Assembly: GCA_036337035.1 (NCBI GenBank)
Contig: JAYZFC010000002.1
Location: 16,138-80,137 of the forward strand
Length of the DNA: 64,000 nucleotides
DNA from: Pseudomonadota bacterium
Lineage (GTDB): Bacteria > Pseudomonadota > Gammaproteobacteria > Steroidobacterales > Rariloculaceae
Reading direction: 5' to 3'
Position numbers and translations under genes: made by a program. Numbering within the stretch: position 1 is the stretch's first letter; each line of letters starts with the position of its first letter. This document shows, piece after piece, positions 2,117 to 41,951 of the stretch. The notes beneath the pieces were generated by a model. It had not been told where the DNA came from. It saw only the letters and a program-made list of their open reading frames with translations, and did not search any database.

Positions 2117-2635
2117 TTACTTTAGCAGATTGCCTTCATCATCAAGATCTAAGCCAGTCTTTCTTGCTTGATCAAGCACTTTAGCTGGCCAGATCACATG
2201 GCCTGCATCCGTCCCACCTACAATTGTCATCATTAACGCATATTCTTTGCCAATGTTTCTAAAACTTCTCATAACACCTGCAGGAACGGAAACAATATCG
2301 AATGCGTTTAACTCAATTCTATTCTCCTCCTCATCACCCCAAAGTATCTCCCAATTACCTGACATAGCAAAAAAAACTTCTACTGTATCGTGAGAGTGAA
2401 GTGACGCACCTTTTTCTGCATTAGCTCCTATGTAAGTAACATTAAAACCTTCTACTGCTTTAATTGCTGGAGATAAGTTAATATCTTCTGTTACTCCTGA
2501 ACCAATTACAGTGAAAACATCTCTTTCCATGCCTGGAATAAGAGAATCTACAAAGGCTTTTTGCGTTGGCTTTAAATCATCAAAACGAGCTAGACGCTCA
2601 TTCATTTGCTCAGGTGTAAAAGTCTTAGATTTCAT
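2117..2635 (-). CDS. Cupin-domain protein (no export signal)
   Basis: 172 aa. Cupin motif 1 is SLHSHDTVEVFFAMSG (HxHx3E) and the motif 2 region is VPAGVMRSFRN. Its ATG overlaps the TGA of the upstream gene (ATGA at 2632-2635). Confidence 0.7.
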   Translation of the reverse strand: MKSKTFTPEQMNERLARFDDLKPTQKAFVDSLIPGMERDVFTVIGSGVTEDINLSPAIKAVEGFNVTYIGANAEKGASLHSHDTVEVFFAMSGNWEILWGDEEENRIELNAFDIVSVPAGVMRSFRNIGKEYALMMTIVGGTDAGHVIWPAKVLDQARKTGLDLDDEGNLLK

Positions 2636-16522: not shown

Positions 16523-16612
16523 GGAGAGGTGGCAGAGCGGTCGAATGCGGCGGTCTTGAAAACCGTTGTCCGTTTGCGCGGACCGGGGGTTCGAATCCCT
16601 CCCTCTCCGCCA
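16523..16612 (+). tRNA. tRNA-Ser (anticodon UGA)
   Basis: GGAGAGG...CCTCTCC acceptor stem with encoded GCCA end. Anticodon arm GCGGT-CTTGAAA-ACCGT gives UGA. Long variable arm TGTCCGTTTGCGCGGACCG and T-arm GGGGGTTCGAATCCCTC. 90 nt. Confidence 0.9.
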
Positions 16613-16628
16613 GTTTTATAATAACTCT

Positions 16629-17072
16629 ATGAAATTAATTTTTTTAATACCCATATTTTTCTTTCTAATTAATACAAGTAAATCTGATGATAGCTTAAGT
16701 AGTTTTTTATGGAAAAATAGGCTTCTTCTTATTTTTTTAGATAATGAAGATACAGAAACTGTAGAATCTATATCTAGTAGTTTAAATAAATTAAGTTGTG
16801 ATTTGAACGATAGAGATATGTTAATTGGATGGTTTACTAATGAAAAACAGGAAATTAACAATATCCAAATAAATGATAATGAAATAAAAAATATCAAAAC
16901 ACGAGCAAAAATAAACAGCAATACTACAACTGTATTACTTATTGGTAAGGATGGAGGAATTAAGGCTAGGTACAATAATATGCCTGATCTAAAAGAGATA
17001 TTTTCATTAATTGATAGAATGCCTATGAGAAGATCTGAAATGAAAAAAAATAAGACTTTTTGTTCCTCTTAA
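16629..17072 (+). CDS. Secreted DUF4174-like protein (tentative)
   Basis: The track ORF starts at 16566 inside the tRNA, so I use ATG 16629 (MKLIFLIPIFFFLINTSKS signal). The WKNRLLLIF...DRDMLIGWF pattern resembles DUF4174 as I recall it. Confidence 0.5.
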   Translation: MKLIFLIPIFFFLINTSKSDDSLSSFLWKNRLLLIFLDNEDTETVESISSSLNKLSCDLNDRDMLIGWFTNEKQEINNIQINDNEIKNIKTRAKINSNTTTVLLIGKDGGIKARYNNMPDLKEIFSLIDRMPMRRSEMKKNKTFCSS

Positions 17073-17087: not shown

Positions 17088-19064
17088 TTATCTCCAATAT
17101 TTTTCAGCAGAAATCATCAAATAATCTAAATCTTCTTCAAGAATAAACCTTTTATCAATTAACTGTTCGCTATAATCTTTAAAAAGTCTCAAGTAGTGAT
17201 CCAAGTTATCGTACCTTTCTTCCAATGATAGTCTGGCATCTCCATTGTCTAAACGCTCAACTCTAGTTCTACTAAACGGAAGAACAAAACCTAAGCCTCC
17301 TTTTGGGCTATTTGGATACCATCCAGTGAAAGTTCCTATAGGTACAGAGATAAAGGGTGATTTTAAACCTCCTAATTCATTACCATCTATATCTACCTGA
17401 GGAATAAGAAAAGGCAAGGTTGATAATATTTGTGGCGGCTCAATTGTAATTACACCATTATGATTAAATGAAGTGCCATAATTAAGCTGATATCCTCTAC
17501 TAATATCTACTGGAACACTTAAATTTTTTAAAATTGGAAAATCTAATTCTTCTAATCTTACTAAGGTATTATCTAGTAACTTAGGATAGACAGAGCTAGG
17601 AGGCGAAGTATCTTTCTGAACCCAATCTGTCATAGCTATTAGCAAGCCTCTAAGAAACCATCGATAATTATTTGGATTACCTCGATTTATAGCGTGATAA
17701 TTTATAGAATCAAAACTTGATGGTACATGCTGCGTACCAGAAAAATGATATATCCTTGAATTTTTTAGATGATTAATATCTTTATCGCCATTAACGTTAG
17801 TATGTATTAAAGCAGCAGGACGCCTCCAATACTCAGTAGATGAATTAGTAAAAAATATTTTAGGGGAACCAGACTTACTATCATCGATAAGAGAGTCCTC
17901 CTTACCATCTAATGGATTAATCTGCTTAATATCAGAAAATGGAAAATGCGTACCTGGATAAAGATAACTTACATCTGTTGCTCTTGATGGCTGAGCGAAT
18001 CTGTGATTAAAGCTACCTCTAGAGCTCGCTCCTAAGTGAACCATCAAACCATCAAAAACTAATCTCCCTTTAATATCTAAATTAAAACCATCGTAAAGAA
18101 AAGTTCTTAATAACCTTCCACTTTGAGAAGAGCCAAAAGATATAGCCTGACTTACAGATGCTGGAAATATTTCATCAGTTTTATTATCATACTTTATGAA
18201 AGAAACTAGATCCCTAATTGAGGCTAAACCTAATCCTGCTACTGATGAATTTCCAGAATAATAAACTACCTCATAAACTCTATTAGGAGAAAATCCATCT
18301 TCTTTATAAATGTAATTTGGGTCACTAATAAAAATATTATCTTCAAGGTATCCAAATTTCCAAAGAGATTTATCGATAGCTACTCTTTCTCCATCTACAG
18401 GTTCTCTCTCTGTAAGAATATTTCTTTCATCATTAATATCTAAAACTGAATAAGGTATATGGCCCCTATCCCCCAATGAGTGAGAATAGCTCAATTCTTG
18501 AACCTGAAAGTCACTCCTAACTATTCCTTCAACAATGCCATTATCACTAGAAAGATTAGGTACATATGCCTTCAATAATATGTCTGACTTAGGTACATCA
18601 AATTGCCATCCCAAGAATAGAAGCGTATATCCACGATTTATAAGAAAATCTATACCAGTAGAATTATCATTCGGAACATCAAAATATGCTGATAAAGTTT
18701 TTTTTCCACGGTTTAAAATATCTACTAATAAAATACCATTTGATTTAGAGCTATCTTTTGGCCTCAATAAATGAAAATCTGATGAAAAAGTAACCGTATT
18801 TTTCTCTATTAAATTTATAGAAGCACGATCAATATCAACAATTAAGCTATTTTCTGATAGAGTAGGATCTAACTCAAAAAAAACCTTTCCTTCTATTAGC
18901 TCATAATTTATTTTTGATATGCCTTCATCCAAAACAGTATCAGTATAATCATATCTTTTATCTATACTAAAGCTAGCAACTTCGGCAAATATTTGTAATG
19001 AGAAAAATAGAGTAATAAAAAATAGACATACCAGTTTAAAAAAAATCATATTTTTATAATTCAC
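17088..19064 (-). CDS. Secreted uncharacterised protein, alpha/beta-hydrolase-like (tentative); paralogue of 2632..4698
   Basis: 658 aa with a signal peptide ending LQIFA/E. GTG 19064 overlaps the TGA of the upstream sulfatase (GTGA); the alternative ATG at 19049 is only 11 nt downstream of that stop. Shared blocks with 2632..4698 are listed there. Confidence 0.6.
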   Translation of the reverse strand: MNYKNMIFFKLVCLFFITLFFSLQIFAEVASFSIDKRYDYTDTVLDEGISKINYELIEGKVFFELDPTLSENSLIVDIDRASINLIEKNTVTFSSDFHLLRPKDSSKSNGILLVDILNRGKKTLSAYFDVPNDNSTGIDFLINRGYTLLFLGWQFDVPKSDILLKAYVPNLSSDNGIVEGIVRSDFQVQELSYSHSLGDRGHIPYSVLDINDERNILTEREPVDGERVAIDKSLWKFGYLEDNIFISDPNYIYKEDGFSPNRVYEVVYYSGNSSVAGLGLASIRDLVSFIKYDNKTDEIFPASVSQAISFGSSQSGRLLRTFLYDGFNLDIKGRLVFDGLMVHLGASSRGSFNHRFAQPSRATDVSYLYPGTHFPFSDIKQINPLDGKEDSLIDDSKSGSPKIFFTNSSTEYWRRPAALIHTNVNGDKDINHLKNSRIYHFSGTQHVPSSFDSINYHAINRGNPNNYRWFLRGLLIAMTDWVQKDTSPPSSVYPKLLDNTLVRLEELDFPILKNLSVPVDISRGYQLNYGTSFNHNGVITIEPPQILSTLPFLIPQVDIDGNELGGLKSPFISVPIGTFTGWYPNSPKGGLGFVLPFSRTRVERLDNGDARLSLEERYDNLDHYLRLFKDYSEQLIDKRFILEEDLDYLMISAEKYWR

Positions 19065-20503
19065 TCGCTGTTTCTAAGTGTTTCGATCTGTTGTTTTAGA
19101 GCTAAATAATTTTCTGATTGCTCTTCAGTCAGATCTCCTTCCAATAAGTTGTTATATTCATAAGGATCTGCTTGTAAATCATAAAAATGTTCTTCTAAAT
19201 TATTTCTTAATAATTTATAGCGGTGGTTTCGCATGGCGTAATCTGCTGTTGGTATGCCAATAAAGCCCCCTGGAAACATATCAGCATAAACCCACTCTCG
19301 TTGTGAAGGAGTATTTAAATCTTTTAAGATCGGTAAAAAACTCACAGAGTCTGTTGTCACTTCTTCAGGTACAGCTTCTTCAGGATCAATACCTGCCATT
19401 TCCATAATGGTGGCAAATAAATCAGTAGAATTAACAAGTGCGTCAGAGACACCATTTACAATCCCCGGTCCAGCAACAATCAAGGGCACATTAACACCGC
19501 CTTGATACATAGTCTGTTTAGCGTAATAAGGACGAAATGGTGATGAAACTATTCTTAAGTCTGTCCCATTATCACCCATAAAAATAACATAGGTATTGGC
19601 ACGAACTTCTGCAGATAAAGAATCTAAGATTCGACCGATTTGTGTATCCATAGCTTCAAGCATGGATTGGAAATAATCTGGGTTATCATAGCTAGGTACT
19701 GAATTTCTTCCAAGATGAGAATAATCAGACTGCCAGTGTTCTTCTGGAGAAAGATGCAAAGGGGTATGAGGTAAATTAAGTGCAAACCACAAAAACCAAG
19801 GATTGTCCTCCTGCTCGGCAATCCAATTAATAGCATCGTTTGTTTTATCCACAGGTGCATAACCAACAGTACCAATTACCTCACCATTGACTACCTTATT
19901 CCAAGAAAAATAGTTTTCTGGCGACCCAAAAGGCAAAGTAACAGCATGATCAAAGCCAACCAGATTGGGATGATCAATTCCTCCATTTTTATCATCTCCT
20001 AAGTGCCATTTACCAATTGCTGCAGTTTTGTAATTTAGATGATCATCAAATGCTTTAGGTAAAGTATATTCATCTAAGTCTAGACCTGCACGGGGAATGC
20101 TACTAAGGCTGTCTATTGCTTCTATACCTGAAAGACCTGGTCCTGGCTGATTACGCATACCTGGAGGAGATGGTACTGCCCATGCAGGTAAAGGAGGTGG
20201 ATCATCAAGCTGGAGCCCACCACCAGGACCACCAACAGGACGCCCTATTCCTGTTCTAAAGCCATATCTTCCAGTTAATAAAGTAGCTCTGGTTGGAGAG
20301 CAAACTGGTTGTGTCCAAAAATTATTAAAACGTATGCCTTCATTTGCTAATTGATCAAGGGTTGCTGTTGTTGCTGTGTCATCGCTCAAACCATAAGAGG
20401 CAAGAGTCTCGTTACCCATATCGTCACCGATGATCAATAAGATGTTCGGAGCTGAGTAGCAAAGGTTACTAAAAAAGAAAAGGATACAAAATTTTAATTT
20501 CAT
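19061..20503 (-). CDS. Secreted type I sulfatase, tandem copy A
   Basis: 480 aa. Signal MKLKFCILFFFSNLCYS/A. Metal site IIGDDMG. Formylglycine motif CSPTRATLLTGR. GKWHLG and FMGDNG blocks. Confidence 0.9.
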   Translation of the reverse strand: MKLKFCILFFFSNLCYSAPNILLIIGDDMGNETLASYGLSDDTATTATLDQLANEGIRFNNFWTQPVCSPTRATLLTGRYGFRTGIGRPVGGPGGGLQLDDPPPLPAWAVPSPPGMRNQPGPGLSGIEAIDSLSSIPRAGLDLDEYTLPKAFDDHLNYKTAAIGKWHLGDDKNGGIDHPNLVGFDHAVTLPFGSPENYFSWNKVVNGEVIGTVGYAPVDKTNDAINWIAEQEDNPWFLWFALNLPHTPLHLSPEEHWQSDYSHLGRNSVPSYDNPDYFQSMLEAMDTQIGRILDSLSAEVRANTYVIFMGDNGTDLRIVSSPFRPYYAKQTMYQGGVNVPLIVAGPGIVNGVSDALVNSTDLFATIMEMAGIDPEEAVPEEVTTDSVSFLPILKDLNTPSQREWVYADMFPGGFIGIPTADYAMRNHRYKLLRNNLEEHFYDLQADPYEYNNLLEGDLTEEQSENYLALKQQIETLRNSE

Positions 20504-20509
20504 AATAAT

Positions 20510-21943
20510 TTACTCGCTGTTTCTAAGTGTTTCGATCTGTTGTTTTAGGGCTAAGTAATTTTCTGATTGCTCTTCAGTCAGATCTCCTTCCAATAAGTTA
20601 TTATGCTCATAAGGGTCTGCTTGTAGATCATAAAAATTTTCTGCGGGTGTAGCTCTAAAATCTCTTAATAATTTATAGCGGTGATTACGCATTGCATATT
20701 CTGAAAATGGAATACCCTCAAAACCATAAAATCTATCAGCATAAACCCACTCTCGTTGTGAAGGAGCATTTAAATCTTTTAAGATCGGTAAAAAGCTCAC
20801 AGAGTCTGTTGTCACATCTTCAGGTACAGCTTCTTCAGGATCAATGCCTGCCATTTCCATAATGGTGGCAAATAAATCAGTAGAATTAACAAGTGCATCA
20901 GAGACACCATTTACAACCCCCGGTCCAGTGACAATCAAGGGCACATTAATACCGCCTTGAAAAACATATCCCTTAGTATTACCAGAATGAAATGGTGATG
21001 AAGCCATTCTTGTATCTGTTCCATTATCACTCATAAAAATAACATAGGTATTGGCACGAACTTCTGCAGATAAAGAATCTAATAACCGACCGATTTGTGT
21101 ATCCATAGCTTCAAGCATGGATTGGAAATAATCTGGGTTGTCATAGCTAGGCACTGAATTTCTTCCAAGATGGGAATAATCAGACTGCCAGTGTTCTTCT
21201 GGAGAAAAATGCAAAGGAGCATGAGGCAAATTAAGTGCAAACCACAAAAACCAAGGATTGTCCTCCTGCTCGGCAATCCAATTAATAGCATCGTTTGTTT
21301 TATCCACAGGTGCATAACCAACAGTACCGATTAGCTCACCATTGACTACCTTATGCCAAGAAAAATAATTTCCTGGACCACCGTTAGGCAAAGTAGCAGC
21401 ATGATCAAAGCCAACCAGATTGGGATGATCAATTCCTCCATTTTTATCATCTCCTAAGTGCCATTTACCAATTGCTGCAGTTTTGTAATTTAGATGATCA
21501 TCAAATGCTTTAGGTAAAGTATATTCATCCAAACTAAGGCCTAAACCAGGCACTCTTCTTAACCTCTCTATTTCTTCTATGCCTGTGCTCGGATTTGGTA
21601 TGAATCCCCTGCCTGGAGATGGTGTCGCCCATGCAGGTAATGGCAGTCGGTCTTCACTGATAGAAACAGAATTACGAGGGGTCCCTAAGCCTGTTCTAAA
21701 GCCATATCTTCCAGTTAATAAAGTAGCTCTGGTTGGAGAGCAAACTGGTTGTGTCCAAAAATTATTAAAACGTATGCCTTCATTTGCTAATTGATCAAGC
21801 GTTGCTGTTGTTGCTGTGTCATCGCTCAAACCATAAGAGGCAAGAGTCTCGTTACCCATATCATCACCGATGATTAATAAGATGTTCGGAGCTGAGTAGC
21901 AAAGGTTACTAAAAAAGAAAAGGATAAAAAATTTTAATTTCAT
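20510..21943 (-). CDS. Secreted type I sulfatase, tandem copy B
   Basis: 477 aa. Same signal peptide, CSPTRATLLTGR, GKWHLG and FMSDNG. TAA stop at 20510-20512, 6 nt upstream of copy A. Confidence 0.9.
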   Translation of the reverse strand: MKLKFFILFFFSNLCYSAPNILLIIGDDMGNETLASYGLSDDTATTATLDQLANEGIRFNNFWTQPVCSPTRATLLTGRYGFRTGLGTPRNSVSISEDRLPLPAWATPSPGRGFIPNPSTGIEEIERLRRVPGLGLSLDEYTLPKAFDDHLNYKTAAIGKWHLGDDKNGGIDHPNLVGFDHAATLPNGGPGNYFSWHKVVNGELIGTVGYAPVDKTNDAINWIAEQEDNPWFLWFALNLPHAPLHFSPEEHWQSDYSHLGRNSVPSYDNPDYFQSMLEAMDTQIGRLLDSLSAEVRANTYVIFMSDNGTDTRMASSPFHSGNTKGYVFQGGINVPLIVTGPGVVNGVSDALVNSTDLFATIMEMAGIDPEEAVPEDVTTDSVSFLPILKDLNAPSQREWVYADRFYGFEGIPFSEYAMRNHRYKLLRDFRATPAENFYDLQADPYEHNNLLEGDLTEEQSENYLALKQQIETLRNSE

Positions 21944-21950
21944 TAATAAT

Positions 21951-23420
21951 TTACTCGCTGTTTCTAAGTGTTTCGATCTGTTGTTTTAGAGCTAAATAAT
22001 TTTCTGATTGTTCTTCAGTTAGATCTCCTTCCAATAAGTTATTATTTTCATAAGGGTCTGCTTGTAGATCATAAAAATTTTCTTCTAGCTGATGTCTTAA
22101 TAATTTATAGCGGTGATTACGCATTGCATAATCTGCTGTTGGTATGCCTTCAAAAGAGCCAAAAAATGCATCAGCATAAACCCAATCTCGTTGTGAAGGA
22201 GTATTTAAATCTTTTAAGATCGGTAAAAAGCTCACAGAGTCTGTTGTCACATCTTCAGGTACAACTTCTTCAGGATCAATGCCTGCCATTTCCATAATGG
22301 TGGCAAATAAATCAGTAGAATTAACAAGTGCATTAGCAGTACCAATAGGTATATTAGGTCCTGTTACTATTAAAGGTACATTAACACCACCTTGAAAAAC
22401 AGATCCCTTAGATTTATCAGCAGAAAATGGTGGTGAAATTGATTGCCCAGTTGTTCCATTATCACCCATAAAAATAACATAGGTATTGGCACGAACTTCT
22501 GCAGATAAAGAATCTAAGATTCGGCCGATTTGTGTATCCATAGCTTCAAGCATGGATTTAAAATTGTCAGGAGAGTTTGATTGCCAATTTTCTTCTGGAG
22601 AAATATGCATTGGAGTATGAACAAGATTAAAAGCTAACCACAAAAACCAAGGGTTATCTTCCTGCTCAGCAATCCAATTAATAGCATCGTTTGTTTTATC
22701 CACGGGTGCATAACCAACGGTACCAGTTACTTCACCATTGACTACTTTGTTCCAAGAAAAATAATTTTCTGGGCCTCCCGCAGGCAAAGTAGCAGCATAA
22801 TCAAAACCAACCATGTTGGGATGATGGGCTGCTCCATTATTTATTCCACCTAAGTGCCATTTACCAATTGCTGCAGTTTTGTAATTTAGATGATTATCAA
22901 ATGCTTTAGGTAAGGTATATTCATCTAAGTCTAGACCTGGACGAGGAATAGGTCTCACCCTATCTATTTCTTCTATACCTGTAAGTGGGGCTCCCATAGC
23001 CCTATAACGCTGACCTCCTGAAGGAGTAAGTGGGGGTCCCATAGCCCTACCTCCTGAAGGAGTAAGTGGGGGTCCCATAGCCATACCTCCTGAAGGAGAT
23101 AGTGTTGCCCATGCAGGTAAAGGAGGTGGATCATCAAGCTCAAACCCTCCAGCAGGACGCCCTATTCCTGTTCTAAAGCCATATCTTCCAGTTAAAAGCG
23201 TAGCTCTGGTTGGAGAACAAACTGGCTGTGACCAAAAATTATTAAAGCGTATGCCTTCATTTGCTAATTGATCAAGCGTTGCTGTTGTTGCTGTGTCATC
23301 GCTCAAACCATAAGAGGCAAGAGTATCGTTACCCATATCATCACCGATGATTAATAAGATGTTCGGAGCTGAGTAGCAAAGGTTACTAAAAAAGAAAAGG
23401 ATAAAAAATTTTAATTTCAT
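21951..23420 (-). CDS. Secreted type I sulfatase, tandem copy C (carries internal 12-aa repeat insertion)
   Basis: 489 aa. Same signal peptide, CSPTRATLLTGR, GKWHLG and FMGDNG. Contains GGMAMGPPLTPSGGRAMGPPLTPSGGQRYRAMGAPLTG. Confidence 0.9.
   Translation of the reverse strand: MKLKFFILFFFSNLCYSAPNILLIIGDDMGNDTLASYGLSDDTATTATLDQLANEGIRFNNFWSQPVCSPTRATLLTGRYGFRTGIGRPAGGFELDDPPPLPAWATLSPSGGMAMGPPLTPSGGRAMGPPLTPSGGQRYRAMGAPLTGIEEIDRVRPIPRPGLDLDEYTLPKAFDNHLNYKTAAIGKWHLGGINNGAAHHPNMVGFDYAATLPAGGPENYFSWNKVVNGEVTGTVGYAPVDKTNDAINWIAEQEDNPWFLWLAFNLVHTPMHISPEENWQSNSPDNFKSMLEAMDTQIGRILDSLSAEVRANTYVIFMGDNGTTGQSISPPFSADKSKGSVFQGGVNVPLIVTGPNIPIGTANALVNSTDLFATIMEMAGIDPEEVVPEDVTTDSVSFLPILKDLNTPSQRDWVYADAFFGSFEGIPTADYAMRNHRYKLLRHQLEENFYDLQADPYENNNLLEGDLTEEQSENYLALKQQIETLRNSE
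22978..23100 (-). repeat. 36-nt in-frame tandem repeat inside sulfatase copy C
   Basis: Units 23014-23049 and 23050-23085 (cctcctgaaggagtaagtgggggtcccatagccCta / ...ccAta) differ at 1 of 36 positions. Degenerate partial copies flank them on both sides. The unit encodes GGxAMGPPLTPS. Confidence 0.85.
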
Positions 23421-23545
23421 TAGGCAGGTCTCTATGATTACAAAATTTTAAATTATTAATAAAAAACATTACAATAATAACTAACCTGTGTAACACTATA
23501 AAAAAAAAGTATAATTCTCAAATATTTAATGTGAGTTAAATCTTT

Positions 23546-24760: not shown

Positions 24761-26074
24761 TTAAATTTCTCCCATAAGATAATTTGGGAGAAATGTAACT
24801 ATCTCAGGAAAAATTGATAGCAAAATAATAGTCAATACCATTATCAATGCATAAGGTATAGCTCCAAGAAGAACTTTAGTTAGATCAACATCAGGTGCTA
24901 TTCCATTAATAACATATAAATTTAAACCAACAGGTGGAGTAATAAGCCCAATTTCCATATTTATAGTCAAAATAACTGCAAACCAATAAGGATCAAAACC
25001 TGCTTGAGTGATAAGAGGTAATAATATAGGCGCTGTCATAACTATCACAGCAACGGGAGGCAAGAAAAAGCCAGCTAAAAGTAGAAAAATATTAACAGCA
25101 GCTAATAAAAACCATCTATTAAGCTCTAAGAGAGCTATCCACTCAGCGATAGATTGTGTCACAAATAAACTAGATAATGTATAGCTAAAAAGACTAGCTG
25201 CTGCAATGATCATCATAATCATAATGCTTTCGCGAGAGCTTTCTTTTAGTATATGCCAAATCTTCAAAGGATTTCTTACTTTATAAATAACAGCAATGAG
25301 GATAAAACACATCATCGCACCCACTCCTGCAGCTTCAGATGGGGTTGCAACACCGCCATATAGCACAAATAGAATCGCCAAGATCAAAAGTAAAAATGGT
25401 GCGACCTTTGGTATTAGTTCTAATTTCTCTTTAAATGAAAATTTTTTTTTGTTAAAGGCTGCTAAGTTATTATTTTTTGATCCATAAAAAATAGCCCAAA
25501 AAATAAAAAATAAAGTCAAAAGCAATCCTGGAATAATCCCTGATATAAATAAACGACCTATAGAAGTACCAGTTGAAATACCATAAACGATCATGGTAAC
25601 ACTTGGTGGAATTAAAATGCCTAGGGTACCTCCTGCTGCAATAGATCCAGTGGCAAGCTCATCTGAATAGCCTCTTTTTCTCATTTCAGGAATACCCATT
25701 TTCCCGATAGCTGCACAAGTAGCAGGAGAAGATCCGCTTAAGGCTGCAAAAATTGAGCAAGCAAAAATATTAGAAATAGCTAACCCACTTGGTACACGAT
25801 AGAGCCATCTTTCTAAGGCTCCATAAAGATCACTTGATGCTGGAGATGAGGCAATAGCACCACCCATTGCAATAAACATAGGAATAGATATAAGTGTAAA
25901 ATCTGATATGCCAGAAAAAAATAACTCACCTAAAAAATTTAGCGAGTAGAACCCTTCAAAAAACAACAAAAAGCTTATTGCTATAAAAATAAGACCAAAA
26001 GCAACAGGAATACCTGTTGCCAGAATAATAATAGTTGATAATGCAATTAAGCTTCCTATTTCTAAAGGGCTCAT
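24761..26074 (-). CDS. dctM: TRAP transporter large permease subunit
   Basis: 437 aa, about 12 TM segments, typical DctM blocks (IPMFIAMGG, GSSPATCAAIGKMGIPEM). Overlaps dctQ by 4 nt. Confidence 0.9.
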   Translation of the reverse strand: MSPLEIGSLIALSTIIILATGIPVAFGLIFIAISFLLFFEGFYSLNFLGELFFSGISDFTLISIPMFIAMGGAIASSPASSDLYGALERWLYRVPSGLAISNIFACSIFAALSGSSPATCAAIGKMGIPEMRKRGYSDELATGSIAAGGTLGILIPPSVTMIVYGISTGTSIGRLFISGIIPGLLLTLFFIFWAIFYGSKNNNLAAFNKKKFSFKEKLELIPKVAPFLLLILAILFVLYGGVATPSEAAGVGAMMCFILIAVIYKVRNPLKIWHILKESSRESIMIMMIIAAASLFSYTLSSLFVTQSIAEWIALLELNRWFLLAAVNIFLLLAGFFLPPVAVIVMTAPILLPLITQAGFDPYWFAVILTINMEIGLITPPVGLNLYVINGIAPDVDLTKVLLGAIPYALIMVLTIILLSIFPEIVTFLPNYLMGEI

Positions 26075-26598
26075 AATATGCCATCTTTAATAGAAGATTG
26101 CTTAAAAAGCTCTAGCTTATTAGTATAAATAGAATAAATATCAGCTAATAATTGTAAGGATAACAAACTAAAGCCTATAGCTAGAGGTAAAGTGGGTATC
26201 CATAAAGGAGGTGCCCATATTGAAGGGGTTCTCCAATCATTAATCCATGCCTCATAAAAATAAAACCAACTTGCCCAAGCCAAAATAACACATCCAAATA
26301 AAGATAAAAAAGATGAAAATATAGCTAGGTATTTTCTTGCGTTAGAATTTAAAAAATGTGGAACTAGATCAACATTTACATGACCTCGAGTTAAGAGTAC
26401 GTATGGACTACCAATTAAGGTTGCAGATACTACTGCAAAGATAACAAACTCATATTGCCAAATTGTAGATTGGCCTAAAATATATCTAATAAATACCATA
26501 TAGCAAACAACTACACAGGCGATTGCCAAAAGAAAGGCTGCTATTGCTCCACAAAGCCTAGATAAAAAATGAATAAAAGAAATAATCTTATCAATCAT
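26071..26598 (-). CDS. dctQ: TRAP transporter small permease subunit
   Basis: 175 aa, four TM segments, positioned between dctP and dctM. Confidence 0.8.
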   Translation of the reverse strand: MIDKIISFIHFLSRLCGAIAAFLLAIACVVVCYMVFIRYILGQSTIWQYEFVIFAVVSATLIGSPYVLLTRGHVNVDLVPHFLNSNARKYLAIFSSFLSLFGCVILAWASWFYFYEAWINDWRTPSIWAPPLWIPTLPLAIGFSLLSLQLLADIYSIYTNKLELFKQSSIKDGIL

Positions 26599-26606
26599 TC
26601 AAATAC

Positions 26607-27599
26607 CTATTCAACTGAAAGAGCTTGCCTGATTAGCTCTTCACCACCTTCAACCTCTTCTGAAAACACCCTATAGGAAGTCTCAATTGCAAGATTTTTC
26701 CAAAGTGAAGCCTGTTCAGAATCCATATGCACAACCTCTACTCCAGCATCACTAAAGGTTTTCTCCATATCTAAATCAAGTTGCTGCGCCTCTGCAAAAA
26801 AGAAATCTTCAGCTTTCTCTCCTGCTCTTAGCAATGCATTTTGTTGGTCTTCAGACAGTCGATCCCATTTTCTTTTTGAAACTAAAACTGGTTCATACAT
26901 AAACCATAAAGCATTGTTTCCAGGAGCTGTTAAGCATTGAGTATGTTCAAAAATTCTAAATGAGGTAAAACTTGCTGAACTTGTATTAGCAGCATCCAGA
27001 ACACCGGTCTGCATAGCTGTATAAATGTCAGAACTAGGCATAGCAGCAATAGAAGCACCAGCAGCTACTAACATTCTTTCAAAAGCCGCTCCTCCTGCTC
27101 TAATAACTTGCCCTTGTATATCATCTGGTTCAAGAATACATGCCTGTGATGAAACAAAACCTCCAGCCAGCCAAGCATCCGCAATAACAATAACGCCTGC
27201 TTCGTTTATTATCCTTCTAATTGAATCCATAAACTCTGAATTATTCAATCGTTTAGCATGTTCATGATTTTTTACTAAACCAGGCATCAATGTGGCATTA
27301 AACTGTGGGTGCCTCCCACTAGCATAAATTAGAGGTAAGGCAGTTATATCTAATTGCCCTCGCACAATGGCAGGCCATTGATCAGCTGCCTTAAATAAAG
27401 ATTGGCCAGAATAAATTCTAATTTGAAGATCAACATTTGCTAGCTCTACCTCTTCTGCAATGATCTGAACCATTTCATGCCTAATATCTCCCGAATTTCC
27501 TGGAAATTGATGGGACGCTCTAAGAGTAGTTTGAGGGCTAGAAACTTCTAGAAAAAATAAGCTAATAAAAGCTGTAAAAAAATAATTTCGATACAACAC
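26607..27599 (-). CDS. dctP: TRAP transporter periplasmic substrate-binding subunit
   Basis: The track ORF runs to GTG 27749. I prefer GTG 27597-27599 (V in KKVLYRNYFFTAFISLFFLEVSS): it gives a normal signal peptide, has GAGGGA 9-10 nt upstream, and removes a 29-nt head-to-head overlap with 27721..28113. DctP-like body follows (RASHQFPG...). Confidence 0.75.
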   Translation of the reverse strand: MLYRNYFFTAFISLFFLEVSSPQTTLRASHQFPGNSGDIRHEMVQIIAEEVELANVDLQIRIYSGQSLFKAADQWPAIVRGQLDITALPLIYASGRHPQFNATLMPGLVKNHEHAKRLNNSEFMDSIRRIINEAGVIVIADAWLAGGFVSSQACILEPDDIQGQVIRAGGAAFERMLVAAGASIAAMPSSDIYTAMQTGVLDAANTSSASFTSFRIFEHTQCLTAPGNNALWFMYEPVLVSKRKWDRLSEDQQNALLRAGEKAEDFFFAEAQQLDLDMEKTFSDAGVEVVHMDSEQASLWKNLAIETSYRVFSEEVEGGEELIRQALSVE

Positions 27600-27613
27600 T
27601 TTTTTTTCTTCCC

Positions 27614-27641
27614 TCTGTTTATTTTTAAATAATCTGTTTAT
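27614..27641. promoter_or_regulatory. Exact 9-nt direct repeat TCTGTTTAT x2 in divergent promoter region (candidate operator)
   Basis: TCTGTTTAT occurs at 27614-27622 and 27633-27641 (19 nt start to start), between dctP and the (GM)n gene. TATAAT at 27671-27676 and GGAG at 27709-27712 precede ATG 27721. Confidence 0.25.
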
Positions 27642-27720
27642 ACTAGAAACTAACTTTGATATTACCTTTGTATAATTATAACAAATATATTTAATATTAT
27701 TCGAAATTGGAGCAATAATT

Positions 27721-28113
27721 ATGAATTCTATTTTTAGCAAAATATTCACTTTTTTTCTAGCTTATCTTATAAGTGCTAGCTTTATCTGGGCTCAAAATGC
27801 CGGAATGGGTGGCATGGGCATGGGCATGGGTATGGGAGGAGCTAGATGTGTAATGCCTGATATGCCAACTGTGCCAGATGGGAATACAGCAACCGAAGAA
27901 GAGCTTATTGCAGCAGTGAATGAAGTTAAAAACTTCCAAGAGCTTAATGCTGCATTCAGAGAGTGTTTGGATAATCAAGAAAGAGCTTTTGGTGAAGAGA
28001 TACCTGAAAATGCCCTTAGAAGAATATTAGGTCAGTATAACGAATCTGTAGAAAATGAAGAAAATCTTGGCGCTCAAGTCAATGATGCAATAAGAGCATT
28101 TAGATCAAGATAA
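27721..28113 (+). CDS. Small secreted protein with (Gly-Met)n tract, unknown function
   Basis: 130 aa. Signal ending SFIWA/Q. GMGGMGMGMGMGG is encoded at 27802-27840. Two Cys (ARCVMPD, FRECLDN). Stop lies 1 nt before the next gene start. Confidence 0.5.
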   Translation: MNSIFSKIFTFFLAYLISASFIWAQNAGMGGMGMGMGMGGARCVMPDMPTVPDGNTATEEELIAAVNEVKNFQELNAAFRECLDNQERAFGEEIPENALRRILGQYNESVENEENLGAQVNDAIRAFRSR

Positions 28114-28114: not shown

Positions 28115-29776
28115 ATGCAGAAACAATGGTCTTCTGTAATTCTATTTTCAGCATATCTGATAGGATGCTCTGGTAATAATGATCTTAATTCGTTAAATAT
28201 AGAAGATAAACCTAATAAACCAAACATACTAATAATTGTTGCTGATGACATAGGTTTTACAGATATTGGCTCTTTTGGTAGTGAAATTAATACTCCCAAT
28301 CTAGATAGATTGGCTCTTGAAGGAGTTCGCCTTAATAATCTTCATGCAAATTCCTCCTGTCAGCCTATGAGAGCAATGCTAATGACAGGAATGAGCCCTA
28401 GCTCAGTAATTCAGAATGGTCCACGGCTTCCCCGTTCAGGAGAAAGGGGTAACTGGATAAAACCAGAAGTTCCTATGCTTCAAGAAATGCTTAAACATGA
28501 AGGCTATTCAACTTATATGGCAGGTAAATGGGATCTTGGACCGCTTCCTGGGCATACCCCAATATCAAGAGGGTTTGATAGATATTTCACACAACTAAAT
28601 GGTTCAGCTAACTACTTTCCTGCACCGCTTCTATCTGAGGATGCAATGTACGAAGAAGATGGAATATCATTAGATTTCAAAGATTTACCAGATGACTTTT
28701 ATGCTACAAAACACTATACAGATAAGATGATTGAGTATCTTGAATCTCATAACCAAGATTCTCCATGGTTTGCTTTCGTTCCATATACAGCACCACATTG
28801 GCCGCTTATGTTGCCAGAAGACTGGTTAGATCGCTACAAAGGACAATATGAAGAAGGTTATGATGTACTTAGAAAAGAAAGATTTAAAAAGGCTACTGAA
28901 CTTGGCGTGCTCCCAAAAAATGCAAATCTTAATTCCTATAAGCCCACGGCTACTCTATGGAATGACTTAAGTATGGATGAAAAAATGAAGCTATCTAGAG
29001 CCCAAGAAATATTTTCTGGTATGGTTGAATACATGGACATGAGTATTGGAAGAATTATTCAAACTTTAGAATCAACAAATCAACTAGAAGATACTATTAT
29101 TATCTATACTGCAGATCATGGAGCATCTAGAGCAGATTATGCATTAAGCACAAACTTAAATCCCTATGACTCAAAAAATCTAGGCGGGCCGAGAATACCA
29201 TGGGATAAAATAAATAATAATATTGAAAACTTTGGATATAGTGATTCTTTTATTGATAGAGGCTTAGGATTTGCCACAGCAGCAACTGCACCATTTAAAG
29301 GTAGTAAGTCATTCTTAGATGAAGGTGGTTTGAGGGCTGCTGCATTTATCAGGTATCCTAAAGAAATTAAGGGTGGTGAAGTTGACTCTACCTTCCTAAC
29401 TATGATGGATTTTTTTCCAACATTTATAGATATAACTGACTCAAATTTTTTAAGTGAAGAGGATTATCAAGCACTTAAAGGAGATTCATTTTGGAAGTAT
29501 ATTACAAAACAAGCTAGCTCCTTCAGAGATGAAGATTTCTCAGCAGGATGGATCAGAGGTAATGATGCTCCAGCCGAAGGCCAAAATAATTTTGGTGGTG
29601 CATTAATCAAAGGTAAGTATAAGATTATTAATATGCCACAAGAAAGATTAGGGTCATATACAGAATGGAGACTTTATAATCTAGATGAAGATCCAGGTGA
29701 ACATAATGATCTGGCTAAAAATTATCCAAATATTGTTAACGATCTAGTAAATACGCTTCAATCAGACTGGCCTTAA
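28115..29776 (+). CDS. Lipoprotein type I sulfatase
   Basis: 553 aa. Lipobox LIGC. VADDIGFTDIGSFGS. Formylglycine motif CQPMRAMLMTG. GKWDLG and YTADHG. Confidence 0.85.
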   Translation: MQKQWSSVILFSAYLIGCSGNNDLNSLNIEDKPNKPNILIIVADDIGFTDIGSFGSEINTPNLDRLALEGVRLNNLHANSSCQPMRAMLMTGMSPSSVIQNGPRLPRSGERGNWIKPEVPMLQEMLKHEGYSTYMAGKWDLGPLPGHTPISRGFDRYFTQLNGSANYFPAPLLSEDAMYEEDGISLDFKDLPDDFYATKHYTDKMIEYLESHNQDSPWFAFVPYTAPHWPLMLPEDWLDRYKGQYEEGYDVLRKERFKKATELGVLPKNANLNSYKPTATLWNDLSMDEKMKLSRAQEIFSGMVEYMDMSIGRIIQTLESTNQLEDTIIIYTADHGASRADYALSTNLNPYDSKNLGGPRIPWDKINNNIENFGYSDSFIDRGLGFATAATAPFKGSKSFLDEGGLRAAAFIRYPKEIKGGEVDSTFLTMMDFFPTFIDITDSNFLSEEDYQALKGDSFWKYITKQASSFRDEDFSAGWIRGNDAPAEGQNNFGGALIKGKYKIINMPQERLGSYTEWRLYNLDEDPGEHNDLAKNYPNIVNDLVNTLQSDWP

Positions 29777-29821
29777 ATTTATTACAGGAATAAAGTTAAA
29801 AAAAATAATTTATATTTTAAA

Positions 29822-31522
29822 TTAAAGTTTTGAATGATTGATATACTCTAATAATAGATTTTTGTTTTCCCATTCTGATATTAATTGATTAAGAAGATCT
29901 GGATTCTCAGAAGCAAGATCATTATGTTCACCTGGATCTTCATCTAAGTTGAACAGCTTCCATTCATTTCCATCCCAATTAGAGCTACTTGAATTTGGTT
30001 CAGACCTTCCTCGAGCCGAAAATTTAATAATCTTATAATTTCCCATTATAAACGCCCCAAAACCTCTCGAGCTATTAACCCATCCTATACCTTGATTTTC
30101 AGATCTGACGTATTCTGATTCACCAATAATGAAAGGCCAAAAAGAATAGCCCAAAATATCATTAATTTCACGATCTTTATAATAACCAGCACCAGGATGT
30201 TCAGTGCCAGCAATATTTAAGAAAGATGGTAATATATCTATCATCCCCATAAGTTCATTGGTAACCCCTGGATCTATTAATTTTGGAAAATAAATAAATC
30301 CGGCTCCCCTTGTACCGCCTTCAGTTAAGCTGCCCTTATAAAATTTAAATGGAGCACTCGCGGCTTCGCCAAAACCAGTTCCATGATCAATAAAAGAGTT
30401 TGGTCTACCAAAATTTTCAAGGCTATTATTAAAATCCCTCCATCCACCAGTAACAGCTATTTGGTTTTCTGGATTCACGCCATAATCTGCTGCTGAACCA
30501 CCATGATCACTAACAAACATAATGACTGTATTATCTATTTCGCCAGACTCTTCAAGTAAATTAATAATTCTCCCCACACTCATATCCATATATTCAACCA
30601 TTCCAGCATAGATCTCTTGAGCTCTTGAATGTCTTGCCTGAGCTGAAGGGGTTAAGCTCTCCCAAGAAGCTGCAGTCGGCTCAAAATTCTCTAATGAGCC
30701 TCCGGGAGGAACAACGCCTAATTCTAAAGCTTTTTTGAATCGTTCAGCTCTAAGTAAATCATAACCTTCATCATACCTTCCATCATAACGATCTAACCAA
30801 TCATCTGGCAAACCTAGTGGCCAGTGTGGAGCTGTATAAGGTACATAAGCAAACCACGGAGATTCATTAGAGCTAGAAGAAATATACTCAATAATCTTAT
30901 CCGTGTAATACTCAGTTGCATAAAAATCTTCAGGTAGATCCTCATTAGCTAAAAGCTTGCCATTATCTTGATACGAATATGGGTACTGATAAATCCTCTC
31001 CTTAAAATGACTATTAGATGGTCCAGAATTTATAAATGAACGATCAAAACCTCTAGTAGAAGGATTGTGTCCTACTCTAGGCCCTAAATCCCACTTGCCT
31101 GCCATAAAAGTTTGATAACCAGCATCTTGAAGTAATTCAGGAAGTAATGCCCAATTTTCACTAACACCAATGCCTCTCTCACCTCCTCTATAAAGCTCAC
31201 CGCCAAAGATTGATTTTGTATTCTCTAATACTGCATCAGCCTCATAACTAGTCATCATTCTTGCCCGAGTAGTAAGGCAAGCTTCTGCCGTTCTAAAGTT
31301 AGTTAGCCTCATACCATTAAAAGCTAGAGTATCAAGATTAGGTGTAGAAATTTCACTGCCAAATGAACCTATATCACTATAGCCTAAATCATCTGCAACT
31401 ATAAAAAGTATATTGGGCCTTCCATCAGAGATAATATTTTGGGATTGGTTTATTTCTGGCGAACATCCAGAAAAAATTAGAGTAAAAGACACTAAAACTA
31501 TGCTTTTATAACTAGATAACAT
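29822..31522 (-). CDS. Lipoprotein type I sulfatase with non-canonical C-L-T-T-R maturation motif
   Basis: 566 aa. Lipobox FSGC. VADDLGYSDIGSFGS, GKWDLG, FVSDHG. The motif codons TGC CTT ACT ACT CGG are read on the minus strand at 31265-31279. Confidence 0.85.
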   Translation of the reverse strand: MLSSYKSIVLVSFTLIFSGCSPEINQSQNIISDGRPNILFIVADDLGYSDIGSFGSEISTPNLDTLAFNGMRLTNFRTAEACLTTRARMMTSYEADAVLENTKSIFGGELYRGGERGIGVSENWALLPELLQDAGYQTFMAGKWDLGPRVGHNPSTRGFDRSFINSGPSNSHFKERIYQYPYSYQDNGKLLANEDLPEDFYATEYYTDKIIEYISSSSNESPWFAYVPYTAPHWPLGLPDDWLDRYDGRYDEGYDLLRAERFKKALELGVVPPGGSLENFEPTAASWESLTPSAQARHSRAQEIYAGMVEYMDMSVGRIINLLEESGEIDNTVIMFVSDHGGSAADYGVNPENQIAVTGGWRDFNNSLENFGRPNSFIDHGTGFGEAASAPFKFYKGSLTEGGTRGAGFIYFPKLIDPGVTNELMGMIDILPSFLNIAGTEHPGAGYYKDREINDILGYSFWPFIIGESEYVRSENQGIGWVNSSRGFGAFIMGNYKIIKFSARGRSEPNSSSSNWDGNEWKLFNLDEDPGEHNDLASENPDLLNQLISEWENKNLLLEYINHSKL

Positions 31523-31567
31523 TATGCATTCCTTTGTTTAGAAAATGATTTAATTTAGATTAACTGA

Positions 31568-33772
31568 TTAATAACGAAAAGTCTTACTATATTTAATAGA
31601 AAACTGGGAATAAGTAGAATTAAATCTTGAAAAATTATCGAGTGTATTAGCGTTATGGTCAAAAACAAGGTAAAGATTTTCGCCAGCTTCTCGATTGAAT
31701 CTTAACCTTGTATTGAAACCTACATTAGATGATGTATTGTCATACTGTAATGAAGTATATAAATAAAGTCTATTTGTAAAATTATAGTTTGATGATATTT
31801 GAACTAATCGCGTTGTAAAATTACCATTGGGTAAATCAACATCATAGTTTTTTATACTACTAGATAAGAAAAACTTATTACTAGGTCTCCACCTAAGAGT
31901 TGCCTCTAAATCATTTCTTGTTCCATTATAGAATCCGCCTCCTTTTACAACTATCTTTGGAGAAAAGTTGCTGTTTTGAGAAAAGTCAGCTTCTATCTGC
32001 CACTCATCATAGCTGTGAGAACCAATTGGTACAATGACGCCTTTTGAAACCTCAAAAGGTTCAGTAAGAACTTCTGTAATTTTATTAAAAGCCACGCTGT
32101 AATTGTGACCAGATCTAGTAATTAATCTGATTGGTCTTATAAAACCATAATAACTTTCTAAATTACCAGTTTGGTCATTATTATGTGATTGAGTACTAAT
32201 AAACAACTCAGCACTTCTTATCCAAGGATGATTATCAAAATTCCTTCGATAACCACTCCACCACCTTACCCTTTTAAAGTCTTTTCGATTAACAAAGCCA
32301 AGAGCTGGGTTGTAGTTTTTTTCTACTACCTCATACTCAATTTTTCCTCTTATACCCTCTTCACCCTGAATTGCAAAGGTTACACCAAGTGTATCTTGAT
32401 CTTGATCTACTCCTGGAGTATCTGTTGCTGTGTACCATATATCCCCTTCAACCCTTTTAGAAGGATAAATAGATGTATTTCTATATCTAAAATCAAGTCC
32501 AGCTACTTTGTTATCTAAATTAGATCTTGGATTACCACTAGTAAATAATAACCCTATATTTGACTCATCTAAAACATTCGCCATAACTCTTGCTACAAAA
32601 AGATCTGACTTATCAAGTGATTGATGACTGTCTTGTTGAACACCAAGCACTCCAATGTTCAAACGGCCAGATCTACCCGTAAGCTTTAAACCTGAGTTGA
32701 TATCTATTGGCTGACCGGCAGCACTTAAACCAATTCTTCTTGTAAAAAAAGGATTTGCATTTCTATTCCACTGGTCATAATTGGCAAAGCTAAAAATATC
32801 CATATCTTGTAGAAAGAAGTTTCTTTTTTCAGGAAAAAAAAGTGAAAAACGGGTGAGATTAAGTTGTCGATCATCCACCTCAGTATCTGAAAAATCAGTA
32901 TTTAGCGTTAATACACCTGTCAATGTTGGATTAAACTTATAAAAAATATCTGCTGATGGCTCAACTGAACTTTCATTTTTGTTCTTAGCAAAATCCTTAT
33001 TTTGTTTTAAAGAAACAGAAGGAATAATATCTAATCCTAAACCTTGATTAATATCATTGAAGCCTTTAACAACACCAAAGCTATCTAAATTTGCATTGCG
33101 GTCAAATTCACTCCAAAAAACTCTCTCATTCTTTCGCCTAATTAATCTAACGAAATTAAAACCCCAATCAGGGTTACTAGGATCAAAATTGATAGATTTA
33201 AAAGGTATAGCTATTTCTGCAGACCAGCCCCATTCTGTTATTTGTGATTGAGCATACCAAATACCATTCCAGTTACTATTACCGGTAATTTTAGTGTCAA
33301 AAATGGATTCTTGTCTGGTACCTATTGCATTTAACCAAAAACTATAGCCAGAAGTCTTTTGATTAAAAGGATCAAGCCGAACACCTATGAGATCATCAGT
33401 AATAACGCCTGTATTGTGCGTCATTACTCTAGCAATAATTGCACTAGGATCAGAGTCTTCTAATCTAGCAGCAACATATAGAAAATCACTATCATAAGTA
33501 ACATAAAATGTAGTTTTTTCAGTTGGCTCTGATAAGTAAGCAGGGTCTACCTGAATAAAATCATCAATAATGGTTGCACTATTCCAAACATCATCGTCAA
33601 TAACACCATCAATAACTGGTGCAACCTCAGTTTTATAAATATTGGCTACCTTTAATGACTCATTTTGAGCAAAAACTGGTGAAATGAGAAAAAATAAAGT
33701 GGATAATTTAATTAATGTATTAAACTTAACAGCATAAAGTATATTTAAAAAATAACGGTGAATATGTTTCAT
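31568..33772 (-). CDS. Outer-membrane protein, CBM9-like N-terminal domain plus DUF5916-like beta-barrel (tentative)
   Basis: 734 aa. Signal ending SPVFA/Q. N-terminal VIDGVIDDDVWNSA block typical of CBM9-like modules. Alternating beta-strand pattern and C-terminal KYSKTFRY. Confidence 0.6.
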   Translation of the reverse strand: MKHIHRYFLNILYAVKFNTLIKLSTLFFLISPVFAQNESLKVANIYKTEVAPVIDGVIDDDVWNSATIIDDFIQVDPAYLSEPTEKTTFYVTYDSDFLYVAARLEDSDPSAIIARVMTHNTGVITDDLIGVRLDPFNQKTSGYSFWLNAIGTRQESIFDTKITGNSNWNGIWYAQSQITEWGWSAEIAIPFKSINFDPSNPDWGFNFVRLIRRKNERVFWSEFDRNANLDSFGVVKGFNDINQGLGLDIIPSVSLKQNKDFAKNKNESSVEPSADIFYKFNPTLTGVLTLNTDFSDTEVDDRQLNLTRFSLFFPEKRNFFLQDMDIFSFANYDQWNRNANPFFTRRIGLSAAGQPIDINSGLKLTGRSGRLNIGVLGVQQDSHQSLDKSDLFVARVMANVLDESNIGLLFTSGNPRSNLDNKVAGLDFRYRNTSIYPSKRVEGDIWYTATDTPGVDQDQDTLGVTFAIQGEEGIRGKIEYEVVEKNYNPALGFVNRKDFKRVRWWSGYRRNFDNHPWIRSAELFISTQSHNNDQTGNLESYYGFIRPIRLITRSGHNYSVAFNKITEVLTEPFEVSKGVIVPIGSHSYDEWQIEADFSQNSNFSPKIVVKGGGFYNGTRNDLEATLRWRPSNKFFLSSSIKNYDVDLPNGNFTTRLVQISSNYNFTNRLYLYTSLQYDNTSSNVGFNTRLRFNREAGENLYLVFDHNANTLDNFSRFNSTYSQFSIKYSKTFRY

Positions 33773-39172: not shown

Positions 39173-39176
39173 AAAA

Positions 39177-39207
39177 ATCCGCCCTAATTAAAAAAACTAG
39201 GGCGGAT
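39177..39207. terminator. Bidirectional intrinsic terminator hairpin
   Basis: Perfect 10-bp stem ATCCGCCCTA (39177-39186) / TAGGGCGGAT (39198-39207). It is flanked by an A-run on one side and a T/A-rich tract on the other, between convergent genes. It is the only GC-rich hairpin I saw in an intergenic gap. Confidence 0.75.
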
Positions 39208-39232
39208 ATATATTAGTATATAAAATTAAATA

Positions 39233-41845: not shown

Positions 41846-41951
41846 ACTGTTCTCCTATAAAAAATTATTACTCTAACACTCTATCTTATATTCATATCTT
41901 TATCATTAAATTTCTAAAAAAAACAACATATTTTTGTAAAAAAACAACAAA

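Follow-up and report, generated by a model that had tools for sequence, protein, structure and literature searches.

The window analyzed here is a stretch of 64,000 nucleotides (nt) from contig JAYZFC010000002.1 of assembly GCA_036337035.1, which is assigned to the gammaproteobacterial family Rariloculaceae. It possesses three intact tandem sulfatase open reading frames (ORFs) at positions 19061-23420; they lie on the minus strand and are read from C through B to A. The original prediction had placed three tandem sulfatases here, and its limits were found to be exact. The three proteins are consecutive NCBI entries of one marine metagenome-assembled genome (MAG), deposited as 'Pseudomonadota bacterium', and show pairwise amino-acid identity of 81-85%. 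As judged from the sequence, the repeat unit is one gene and its spacer. Since the spacers are only 6-7 nt long, C, B and A appear to form one operon, and the Abhydrolase_10 gene following them is probably co-transcribed with the array. Promoter and terminator scans were uninformative (27 matches against 25.5 expected), the sigma-70-like matches being weak and not above chance. The coordinates of all features are collected in Table 1.

All three copies matched the Pfam Sulfatase domain (PF00884) at E values of 1e-40 to 1e-42 and scores of 137-147 bits, where the curated cutoff is 25; the SGSH_C domain was also found in each of them. The motif C68-S-P-T-R72 is invariant in A, B and C along with 116 relatives and aligns to Cys58 of the solved sulfatase AMOR_S1_16A (9FO1). 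Similarly, the calcium ligands D27, D28, D311 and N312 align to D18, D19, D263 and N264 of 9FO1, and the sulfate-site residues K165, H167, H246 and K329 to its K123, H125, H201 and K287; all of these are unchanged across the three copies. The model which AlphaFold2 gave for A has a predicted local distance difference test score (pLDDT) of 90.9 and a predicted template modelling score (pTM) of 0.92. When it was searched with Foldseek, the best 50 PDB matches were all S1 sulfatases, with E values down to 2e-28. The closest solved structures are PsS1_19B (6PSM) and AMOR_S1_16A, with which the sulfatases share the alpha/beta/alpha core with a C-terminal subdomain, the CSPTR motif, the calcium ligands and the sulfate-binding lysine and histidine residues. 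They differ from both in sequence (24-27% identity, template modelling (TM) score about 0.7) and in a Pro/Gly-rich insertion of 50-75 residues after the formylglycine (FGly) motif. From these features, the products are predicted to be secreted Cys-type (formylglycine-dependent) S1 sulfatases with an intact catalytic set. No match to the formylglycine-generating enzyme or the anaerobic sulfatase-maturating enzyme (FGE/anSME) was obtained among the 34 window ORFs run through Pfam. Membership in subfamily S1_16 was also considered. Its conserved pocket residues are Trp79, His125 and His149 in AMOR_S1_16A numbering (PMC11760155). The counterpart of His125 is present (H167), but His149 is replaced by serine or glycine, the Trp79 region is unaligned and the identity is 27%; because the signature His149 is absent, the proteins were not filed as S1_16.

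Codon alignment of the three genes revealed at least five divergent blocks which alternate with near-identical segments in the interior as well as at the ends. The first 87 codons show 95.4-97.7% DNA identity among the copies and the last 38 codons 93.9-94.7% with a single amino-acid difference, while the conserved segments of the interior are 91-100% identical in DNA and thus as alike as the termini. The original prediction had described identical ends of near-identical DNA around a variable interior. The ends are indeed alike, although 'near-identical' somewhat overstates the case at the 3' end, and the likeness of the interior segments had escaped it. Its three variable blocks (after RTG.G, around SSPF...K..Q and around AD.F.G.F.GIP) are real and correspond to V1, V4a and V5a; at least three more, V2, V3 and V4b/V5b, had been overlooked. 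In residues of A, the limits of the blocks are 86-140 for V1, 169-203 for V2, 239-280 for V3, 310-356 for V4a/V4b and 407-450 for V5. Sites private to one copy (105 in C, 64 in B and 53 in A) are strongly clustered along the gene. The longest identical run between A and B is 133 nt, against about 47 nt expected from permutation (p<0.0002), and the longest runs of B-C and A-C are 95 nt (p 0.0002) and 68 nt (p 0.0044), the permutation means across the three pairs being 36-47 nt.

V1 also carries short tandem repeats. The 'repeat' which the original prediction had seen in copy C is a 36-nt tandem repeat, and it has one unit fewer in two genes of related contigs, L004_1 and L011_2. A 12-nt tandem repeat (CCACCAACAGGA, 2.1 units), which encodes a GGPGGG stretch, was observed in V1 of A at window positions 20217-20241. 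As this repeat of A exists besides the one in C, V1 seems to be slippage-prone in more than one copy.

The divergence at silent sites follows the same pattern. In the pooled conserved blocks, synonymous divergence (dS) between the paralogs is 0.09-0.17 and the ratio of non-synonymous to synonymous divergence (dN/dS) is 0.10-0.13. In the pooled variable blocks, the dS is 0.44-0.64, which is 4-5 times that of the conserved blocks, with dN/dS of 0.39-0.47. Even at codons with identical amino acid, silent differences are about 4-fold commoner in the variable blocks (Fisher p 3e-5, 3e-6 and 6e-6). Uniform divergence along the genes, named in the original prediction as the outcome that would speak against it, was not seen when divergence was computed, dS being strongly heterogeneous. 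The dN/dS reaches 0.7-1.0 in V1 and V4 (0.78-0.99 in V1) compared to about 0.1 in the core, and it is above 1 in none of the blocks. V3 has a saturated proportion of synonymous differences (pS 0.68-0.77 in A-C and B-C) at a dN/dS of about 0.1. McDonald-Kreitman-type tests between the types gave inconsistent results (p 0.35, 0.023 and 0.28), and positive selection is therefore not claimed. When the same block variant was compared across samples, the dN/dS within a type was 0.16-0.49. Since silent divergence is raised in the variable blocks as well, these are old sequence and did not arise by fast amino-acid change after a young duplication. With their recurrence in other samples (see below) and the dN/dS within types, they represent discrete and constrained haplotypes.

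To place the array among its relatives, eight related contigs recovered from other samples were compared. A search of genome contigs found three loci, of which one, from Gammaproteobacteria bacterium TMED78, is close and represents the nearest named relative. The next homologs are found at about 60% identity in Rariloculaceae and Woeseiaceae MAGs; most of them are single-copy, although a tandem second copy exists on the Woeseiaceae contig L002. The relatives returned by a search of metagenome contigs were also of about 60% identity. Five other assemblies contain tandem arrays or broken ends of such arrays (L004, L011, L012, L013 and, as a relic, L014). L004, a 24.5 kb contig from JGI, is syntenic with the window in DctPQM, a 262-aa gene and DoxX. 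Its first array gene is of type C, and 7 nt further on begins a second copy, inside which the contig ends; the TMED78 contig (L003) likewise breaks inside a copy. Three tandem copies are present in L011 and two each in L012 and L013. The 9.7 kb contig L005 possesses a single copy with synteny on both sides. In L005, a DUF6152 gene stands directly downstream of the sulfatase, where the window has Abhydrolase_10; the strains therefore differ by a rearrangement in the flank of the array. The window itself has a DUF6152 gene (7147-8154) and a second Abhydrolase_10 paralog (688 aa, 2632-4698) 10-15 kb from the array. L014 contains a full-length sulfatase and the relic of another copy. There (L014:1427-1500), the 5' end of the other copy follows the stop codon of the sulfatase, reads MKLKIFLLFFLCIVRIFY and then stops, giving an 18-codon frame with unrelated sequence beyond; it resembles a scar left by the deletion of an array member. 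The comparison of copy number proposed in the original prediction thus gave a range of 1 to at least 3 in the relatives.

The variable-block types persist across these populations. Each allele of a variable block in A, B and C is matched at 92-100% DNA identity in another sample, while the block types are only 58-77% identical to one another. The first gene of L004 (L004_1) matches C at 92-98% in every variable block, although it lies on an independent and diverged contig. The single copy of L005 combines B-type V1 and V2 with other types elsewhere. The same haplotypes are found in different combinations and copy numbers among related populations. The term 'hypervariable' used in the original prediction does not suit blocks whose variants recur with such identity and with the within-type dN/dS given above. 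Across 112 relatives with about 60% identity, the sites at which A, B and C differ are also the variable ones, with an entropy of 1.80 bits against 0.86 (p 2e-20).

The conserved segments have a different history. In the first 252 nt, 8 informative sites join window copies C and B (W_C and W_B) with each other and L004_1 with the partial copy at the end of the L004 contig (L004_2p), 2 sites group the genes by type, and 0 support the third arrangement. Because the paralogs are grouped by genome at 8 sites against 2 by type, the 5' 252 nt are under concerted evolution. The dS of this segment is 0.06-0.12 between paralogs, compared to 0.23-0.26 between genes of the same type in the two genomes. 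The variable blocks show the reverse order, with 0.16 between genes of the same type and 0.62-0.64 between paralogs. In a quartet with L004_1 and L005_s, the conserved blocks hold 14 genome-specific sites against 3 of the third pattern. Among seven full-length genes, a test modelled on the pairwise homoplasy index (PHI) gave 0.19 against 0.44 in permuted data (p<1/2000), and 10,580 site pairs failed the four-gamete test. The nearest neighbour switches from block to block, so that the segments have conflicting genealogies. The recombination signal of the PHI-like test is strong, and the identical runs are longer than permutation allows. The gene conversion offered in the original prediction fits both the contrast in dS between the two classes of blocks and the 8:2:0 division of the 5' sites. 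The confinement of homogenization to the ends which it had assumed does not fit the data. The 3' end is the weakest case, since its dS of 0.26-0.33 at a dN/dS of 0.03-0.04 suggests that the protein identity there is owed mainly to purifying selection.

The position of the blocks relative to the active site was analyzed by HMMER alignment to 9FO1 and the residues named in PMC11760155. S1 sulfatases share an invariant sulfate (S) site, and the subfamily members with solved structures differ in the 0-subsite residues which set the substrate preference (bioRxiv 10.1101/2021.07.23.453482); the S1_16 structures vary in the loops which surround the ligand-binding site (PMC11760155). V2 starts two residues after H167 and includes the position aligned to His149 of 9FO1, which adjoins the 0-subsite sugar (PMC11760155). 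This position is occupied by Ser194 in A and by glycine in both other copies. The counterpart of V4a in 9FO1 is the 'specific loop 266-276', which carries Glu270. In V5, P411 and G412 of A align to Asn369 and Gln370, which recognise the sugar in 9FO1 (PMC11760155). V1 stands where 9FO1 has the pocket-wall residue Trp79, a correspondence of position only, as the region is unaligned; in the model of A, V1 has low pLDDT except around the conserved PLPAWA. The alignment therefore supports the placement of four of the five blocks on pocket-forming elements of 9FO1, V1 among them by position only. The substrate-facing loops proposed in the original prediction are thus borne out by homology for V2, V4a and V5 and by position for V1. 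From the block positions and the purifying selection within types, we infer that A, B and C would prefer different substrates or subsites, the 'array of specificities' which had been predicted.

The reading that we favor, with a probability of about two in three, is that C, B and A are old paralogs with different pocket loops, the cores of which have been homogenized by interlocus gene conversion and/or unequal crossing-over. By homologous recombination with one another, the copies would repeatedly overwrite their first 255 nt and four core segments of the interior, and these segments would so be kept 91-100% identical in DNA. Five or six loop-coding segments would escape and persist as anciently diverged haplotypes under purifying selection, most of them directly following catalytic residues or aligning to pocket-forming elements of the solved homolog. 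They may escape either since their divergence blocks heteroduplex formation or since converted variants are selected against. Unequal exchange may also account for the copy number of 1 to at least 3, the L014 relic and the re-assorted block combinations.

A different history is considered unlikely, namely that a recent triplication later took in divergent segments of other strains or species by homologous recombination; the variable blocks would then be introgressed alleles, and the likeness of the conserved parts would stem from recent common descent. It agrees with the strong recombination signal of the PHI-like test, with the circulation of the same block types in many combinations in other populations, and with the single-copy syntenic L005, which carries B-type V1 and V2 and other types elsewhere. 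However, a complete type-C gene occupies the same first position in the diverged strain (L004_1), and at least that paralog type therefore predates the split of the strains. Moreover, the genome-specific substitutions common to paralogs in the conserved blocks require exchange within the array. Import and within-array exchange are not mutually exclusive. A recent triplication could also have been followed by diversifying selection which rapidly altered the substrate-facing loops, as the original prediction had offered beside gene conversion. The variable blocks adjoin catalytic residues, the dN/dS of V1 and V4 is raised to 0.7-1.0 over a core of about 0.1, and one McDonald-Kreitman-type test gave p=0.023. 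Against this, the silent sites of the blocks have also diverged 4-5 times more, an effect beyond the reach of selection on amino acids. V3 combines saturated pS with a dN/dS of about 0.1, no block exceeds 1, two of the three McDonald-Kreitman-type tests are non-significant, and the alleles are kept at 92-100% across samples with within-type dN/dS of 0.16-0.49. Diversifying selection as the explanation has, in our estimate, very little probability.

Slightly more improbable still is the case of old paralogs without any exchange, in which strong purifying selection holds the conserved parts and the loops drift; we give it the least credence of all. The conserved blocks do hold the catalytic residues at a dN/dS of 0.10-0.13, and the 3' end, with its dS of 0.26-0.33 and one amino-acid change, fits it. 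But purifying selection at the protein level leaves silent differences in place, and the conserved-block dS of the paralogs (0.09-0.17) is not above that of same-type genes between strains (0.11-0.30). Genome-specific silent changes common to the paralogs and the four-gamete-incompatible site pairs also stand against it. Very unlikely, too, is an assembly artefact, whereby the metagenome assembler concatenated strain variants of a single gene or of two, or joined paralogs wrongly. It would be in line with the window being a MAG contig, with the breaks of L003 and L004 inside the array and with the different block combinations of L011 and L012, contigs of the same population. L012 also starts with an adapter: at L012:1-45 (public ENA contig NODE_7074, ERZ12295432), the Nextera transposase adapter TCGTCGGCAGCGTCAGATGTGTATAAGAGACAG stands directly upstream of the sulfatase start codon, which is contamination in the deposited assembly. 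In contrast, the stop-ATTATT(A)-ATG junctions recur in four other independent assemblies, and the longest exact repeat between copies, of 133 nt, is resolvable by large k-mers or paired reads. All three ORFs are intact, no variable-block type is repeated within the array, and the block linkage of C is confirmed by the diverged strain (L004_1).

Several points weigh against the favored history of old, core-homogenized paralogs. The count behind concerted evolution comprises 10 informative sites and one partial copy (L004_2p), and the 3' end is not clearly homogenized. The window was assembled from a metagenome, and independent contigs do not fully reproduce the block linkage of A and B: that of A is confirmed piecewise by L013_1p (V1-V4) and L015_1 (V4-V5), while that of B has no end-to-end confirmation in the comparison contigs. 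L011 and L012 match the window up to 100% in single blocks, yet with other block combinations. Several of the mosaic relatives, which are short contigs of low coverage, could be assembly chimeras, because paralogs which share exact tracts of 50-133 nt are prone to mis-threading of short reads. V1 may be a mere relaxed linker, considering its dN/dS near 1, low model confidence and repeat slippage. Finally, the closest solved structures are only 24-27% identical and no substrate can be named from them.

Mosaic divergence under interlocus gene conversion is known from the tandem HMA4 triplet of Arabidopsis halleri (bioRxiv 10.1101/2025.10.29.685298), interlocus gene conversion in tandem paralogs from mammalian TLR1/TLR6 (PMC2077338), and concerted evolution is documented in prokaryotes (PMC6053082). 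The sulfatase array resembles HMA4 in its three tandem copies. Like all these cases, it shows homogenized tracts alternating with divergent ones and paralogs closer than orthologs in the converted segments, and its copy number varies as unequal crossing-over would give. Unlike HMA4 and TLR1/TLR6, it encodes a bacterial catabolic enzyme of an uncultured marine lineage, its unconverted segments coincide with active-site loops, and its block haplotypes are re-assorted among environmental populations. The array is a clear example of a known evolutionary process and not a new mechanism. A literature search for sulfatases together with gene conversion found nothing bacterial.

In Neisseria pilE/pilS and opa, Borrelia vlsE and the diversity-generating retroelements, a conserved framework flanks variable cassettes which recombine among copies. 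The array is similar to them in that conserved framework segments flank discrete variable blocks. It differs in that all three copies are complete genes in expressible form, and that the variants are few, old and conserved, with no sign of programmed high-frequency variation. When copy A was compared to the whole window by tblastn, only the three genes and two distant sulfatases were obtained, with no partial silent copies, and no reverse transcriptase was found among the 34 window ORFs run through Pfam. Because the window has no extra copies and these 34 ORFs include no reverse transcriptase, a diversity-generating retroelement or silent-cassette system was rejected.

Table 1. Features of the sulfatase array and of its surroundings, in positions of the window.
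Feature	Position	Strand	Remarks
Sulfatase copy C, first in array	21951..23420	-	489 aa; exact match MEE2683551.1; ORF and Pfam Sulfatase, SGSH_C
Sulfatase copy B	20510..21943	-	477 aa; exact match MEE2683550.1; identical to P0002; Pfam Sulfatase, SGSH_C
Sulfatase copy A, last in array	19061..20503	-	480 aa; exact match MEE2683549.1; Pfam Sulfatase, SGSH_C
C-B spacer ATTATTA, 7 nt	21944..21950	-	C-B-type junction also in L004, L011, L012 and L013
B-A spacer ATTATT, 6 nt	20504..20509	-	From the sequence
5' homogenized tract, codons 1-85	C 23166..23420; B 21689-21943; A 20249-20503	-	DNA 95-98%, dS 0.08-0.16; carries signal peptide, Ca ligands D27/D28 and CSPTR motif with C68
V1, Pro/Gly-rich insertion after FGly motif	C 22938..23165 (residues 86-161); B 21542-21688; A 20087-20248	-	DNA 58-77% between copies
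V2, loop directly after K165/H167	C 22728..22847; B 21332-21451; A 19877-19996	-	Codon alignment
V3, right after sulfate-binding His246, 13-codon indel	C 22557..22667; B 21122-21271; A 19667-19816	-	
V4, loop between D311/N312 and K329 and next strand	C 22326..22466; B 20891-21031; A 19436-19576	-	DNA 63-72% between types
V5, loop of C-terminal subdomain	C 22071..22175; B 20630-20740; A 19181-19285	-	
36-nt tandem repeat, 2.4 units, in V1 of C	23013..23098	-	Tandem Repeats Finder (TRF) score 165, 98% matches; encodes SGG(M/R)AMGPPLTP
Sole sizeable non-coding stretch upstream of array, presumed promoter region	23421..23545	-	From the sequence
Abhydrolase_10 gene, downstream of array, outside repeat	17088..19064	-	Listed GTG start overlaps stop codon of A
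tRNA-SeC	41952-42045	-	
SelB	42059-43594		
SelA	43594-44982		
Pyridine-nucleotide-disulphide oxidoreductase and AIRS/AIRS_C fusion, 742 aa	36944-39172		Looks like SelD

The surroundings of the array contain a tripartite ATP-independent periplasmic (TRAP) transporter, two more sulfatases, a CBM9/DUF5916 protein, TonB-dependent receptors and esterases. Judged by these genes, the array of this uncultured marine gammaproteobacterium lies in a catabolic region rich in sulfatases and transporters. The TRAP transporter is situated at 24761-27749. The two distant sulfatases (553 and 566 aa) lie beside the CBM9/DUF5916 protein (734 aa) at 28115-33772, an arrangement which is kept in L004. Together with the transporter, they suggest a locus for the utilization of sulfated substrates. 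A few other features of the window were also observed. A complete selenocysteine toolkit, made up of tRNA-SeC, SelB, SelA and the SelD-like fusion of Table 1, is found about 14 kb from the array at 36944-45000. A 1061-aa ORF at 33758-36943 combines MFS (major facilitator superfamily) transporter and spermine/spermidine synthase domains, an unusual fusion. A tRNA-Ser(TGA) gene at 16523-16612 overlaps the listed TTG start of a 168-aa ORF (16566-17072), and the true start of this ORF is therefore probably further downstream.

Marine heterotrophs possess many sulfatases whose substrates are mostly unassigned, and the origin of new specificities is poorly documented. The locus represents a compact natural experiment in which one scaffold with intact catalytic residues carries three or four variants of each pocket loop, and it points to residues which can be swapped to map specificity in an uncharacterised S1 clade. 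It also holds a warning for metagenomics, as such arrays break contigs (L003 and L004) and may give chimeric gene models, so that MAG catalogues can misstate sulfatase counts and 'alleles'. The array illustrates, for a bacterial enzyme, conversion-driven homogenization against kept functional divergence, a principle which is already known. A further reading, which we regard as possible but doubtful, is that the array and its relatives constitute a natural loop-shuffling system, in which old loop haplotypes, with at least 3-4 types at each of five positions, are re-assorted within arrays and between strains. If this is true, a marine population would carry combinatorial sulfatase specificities on one homogenized scaffold, and a catabolic enzyme, not a surface antigen, would be the shuffled product.

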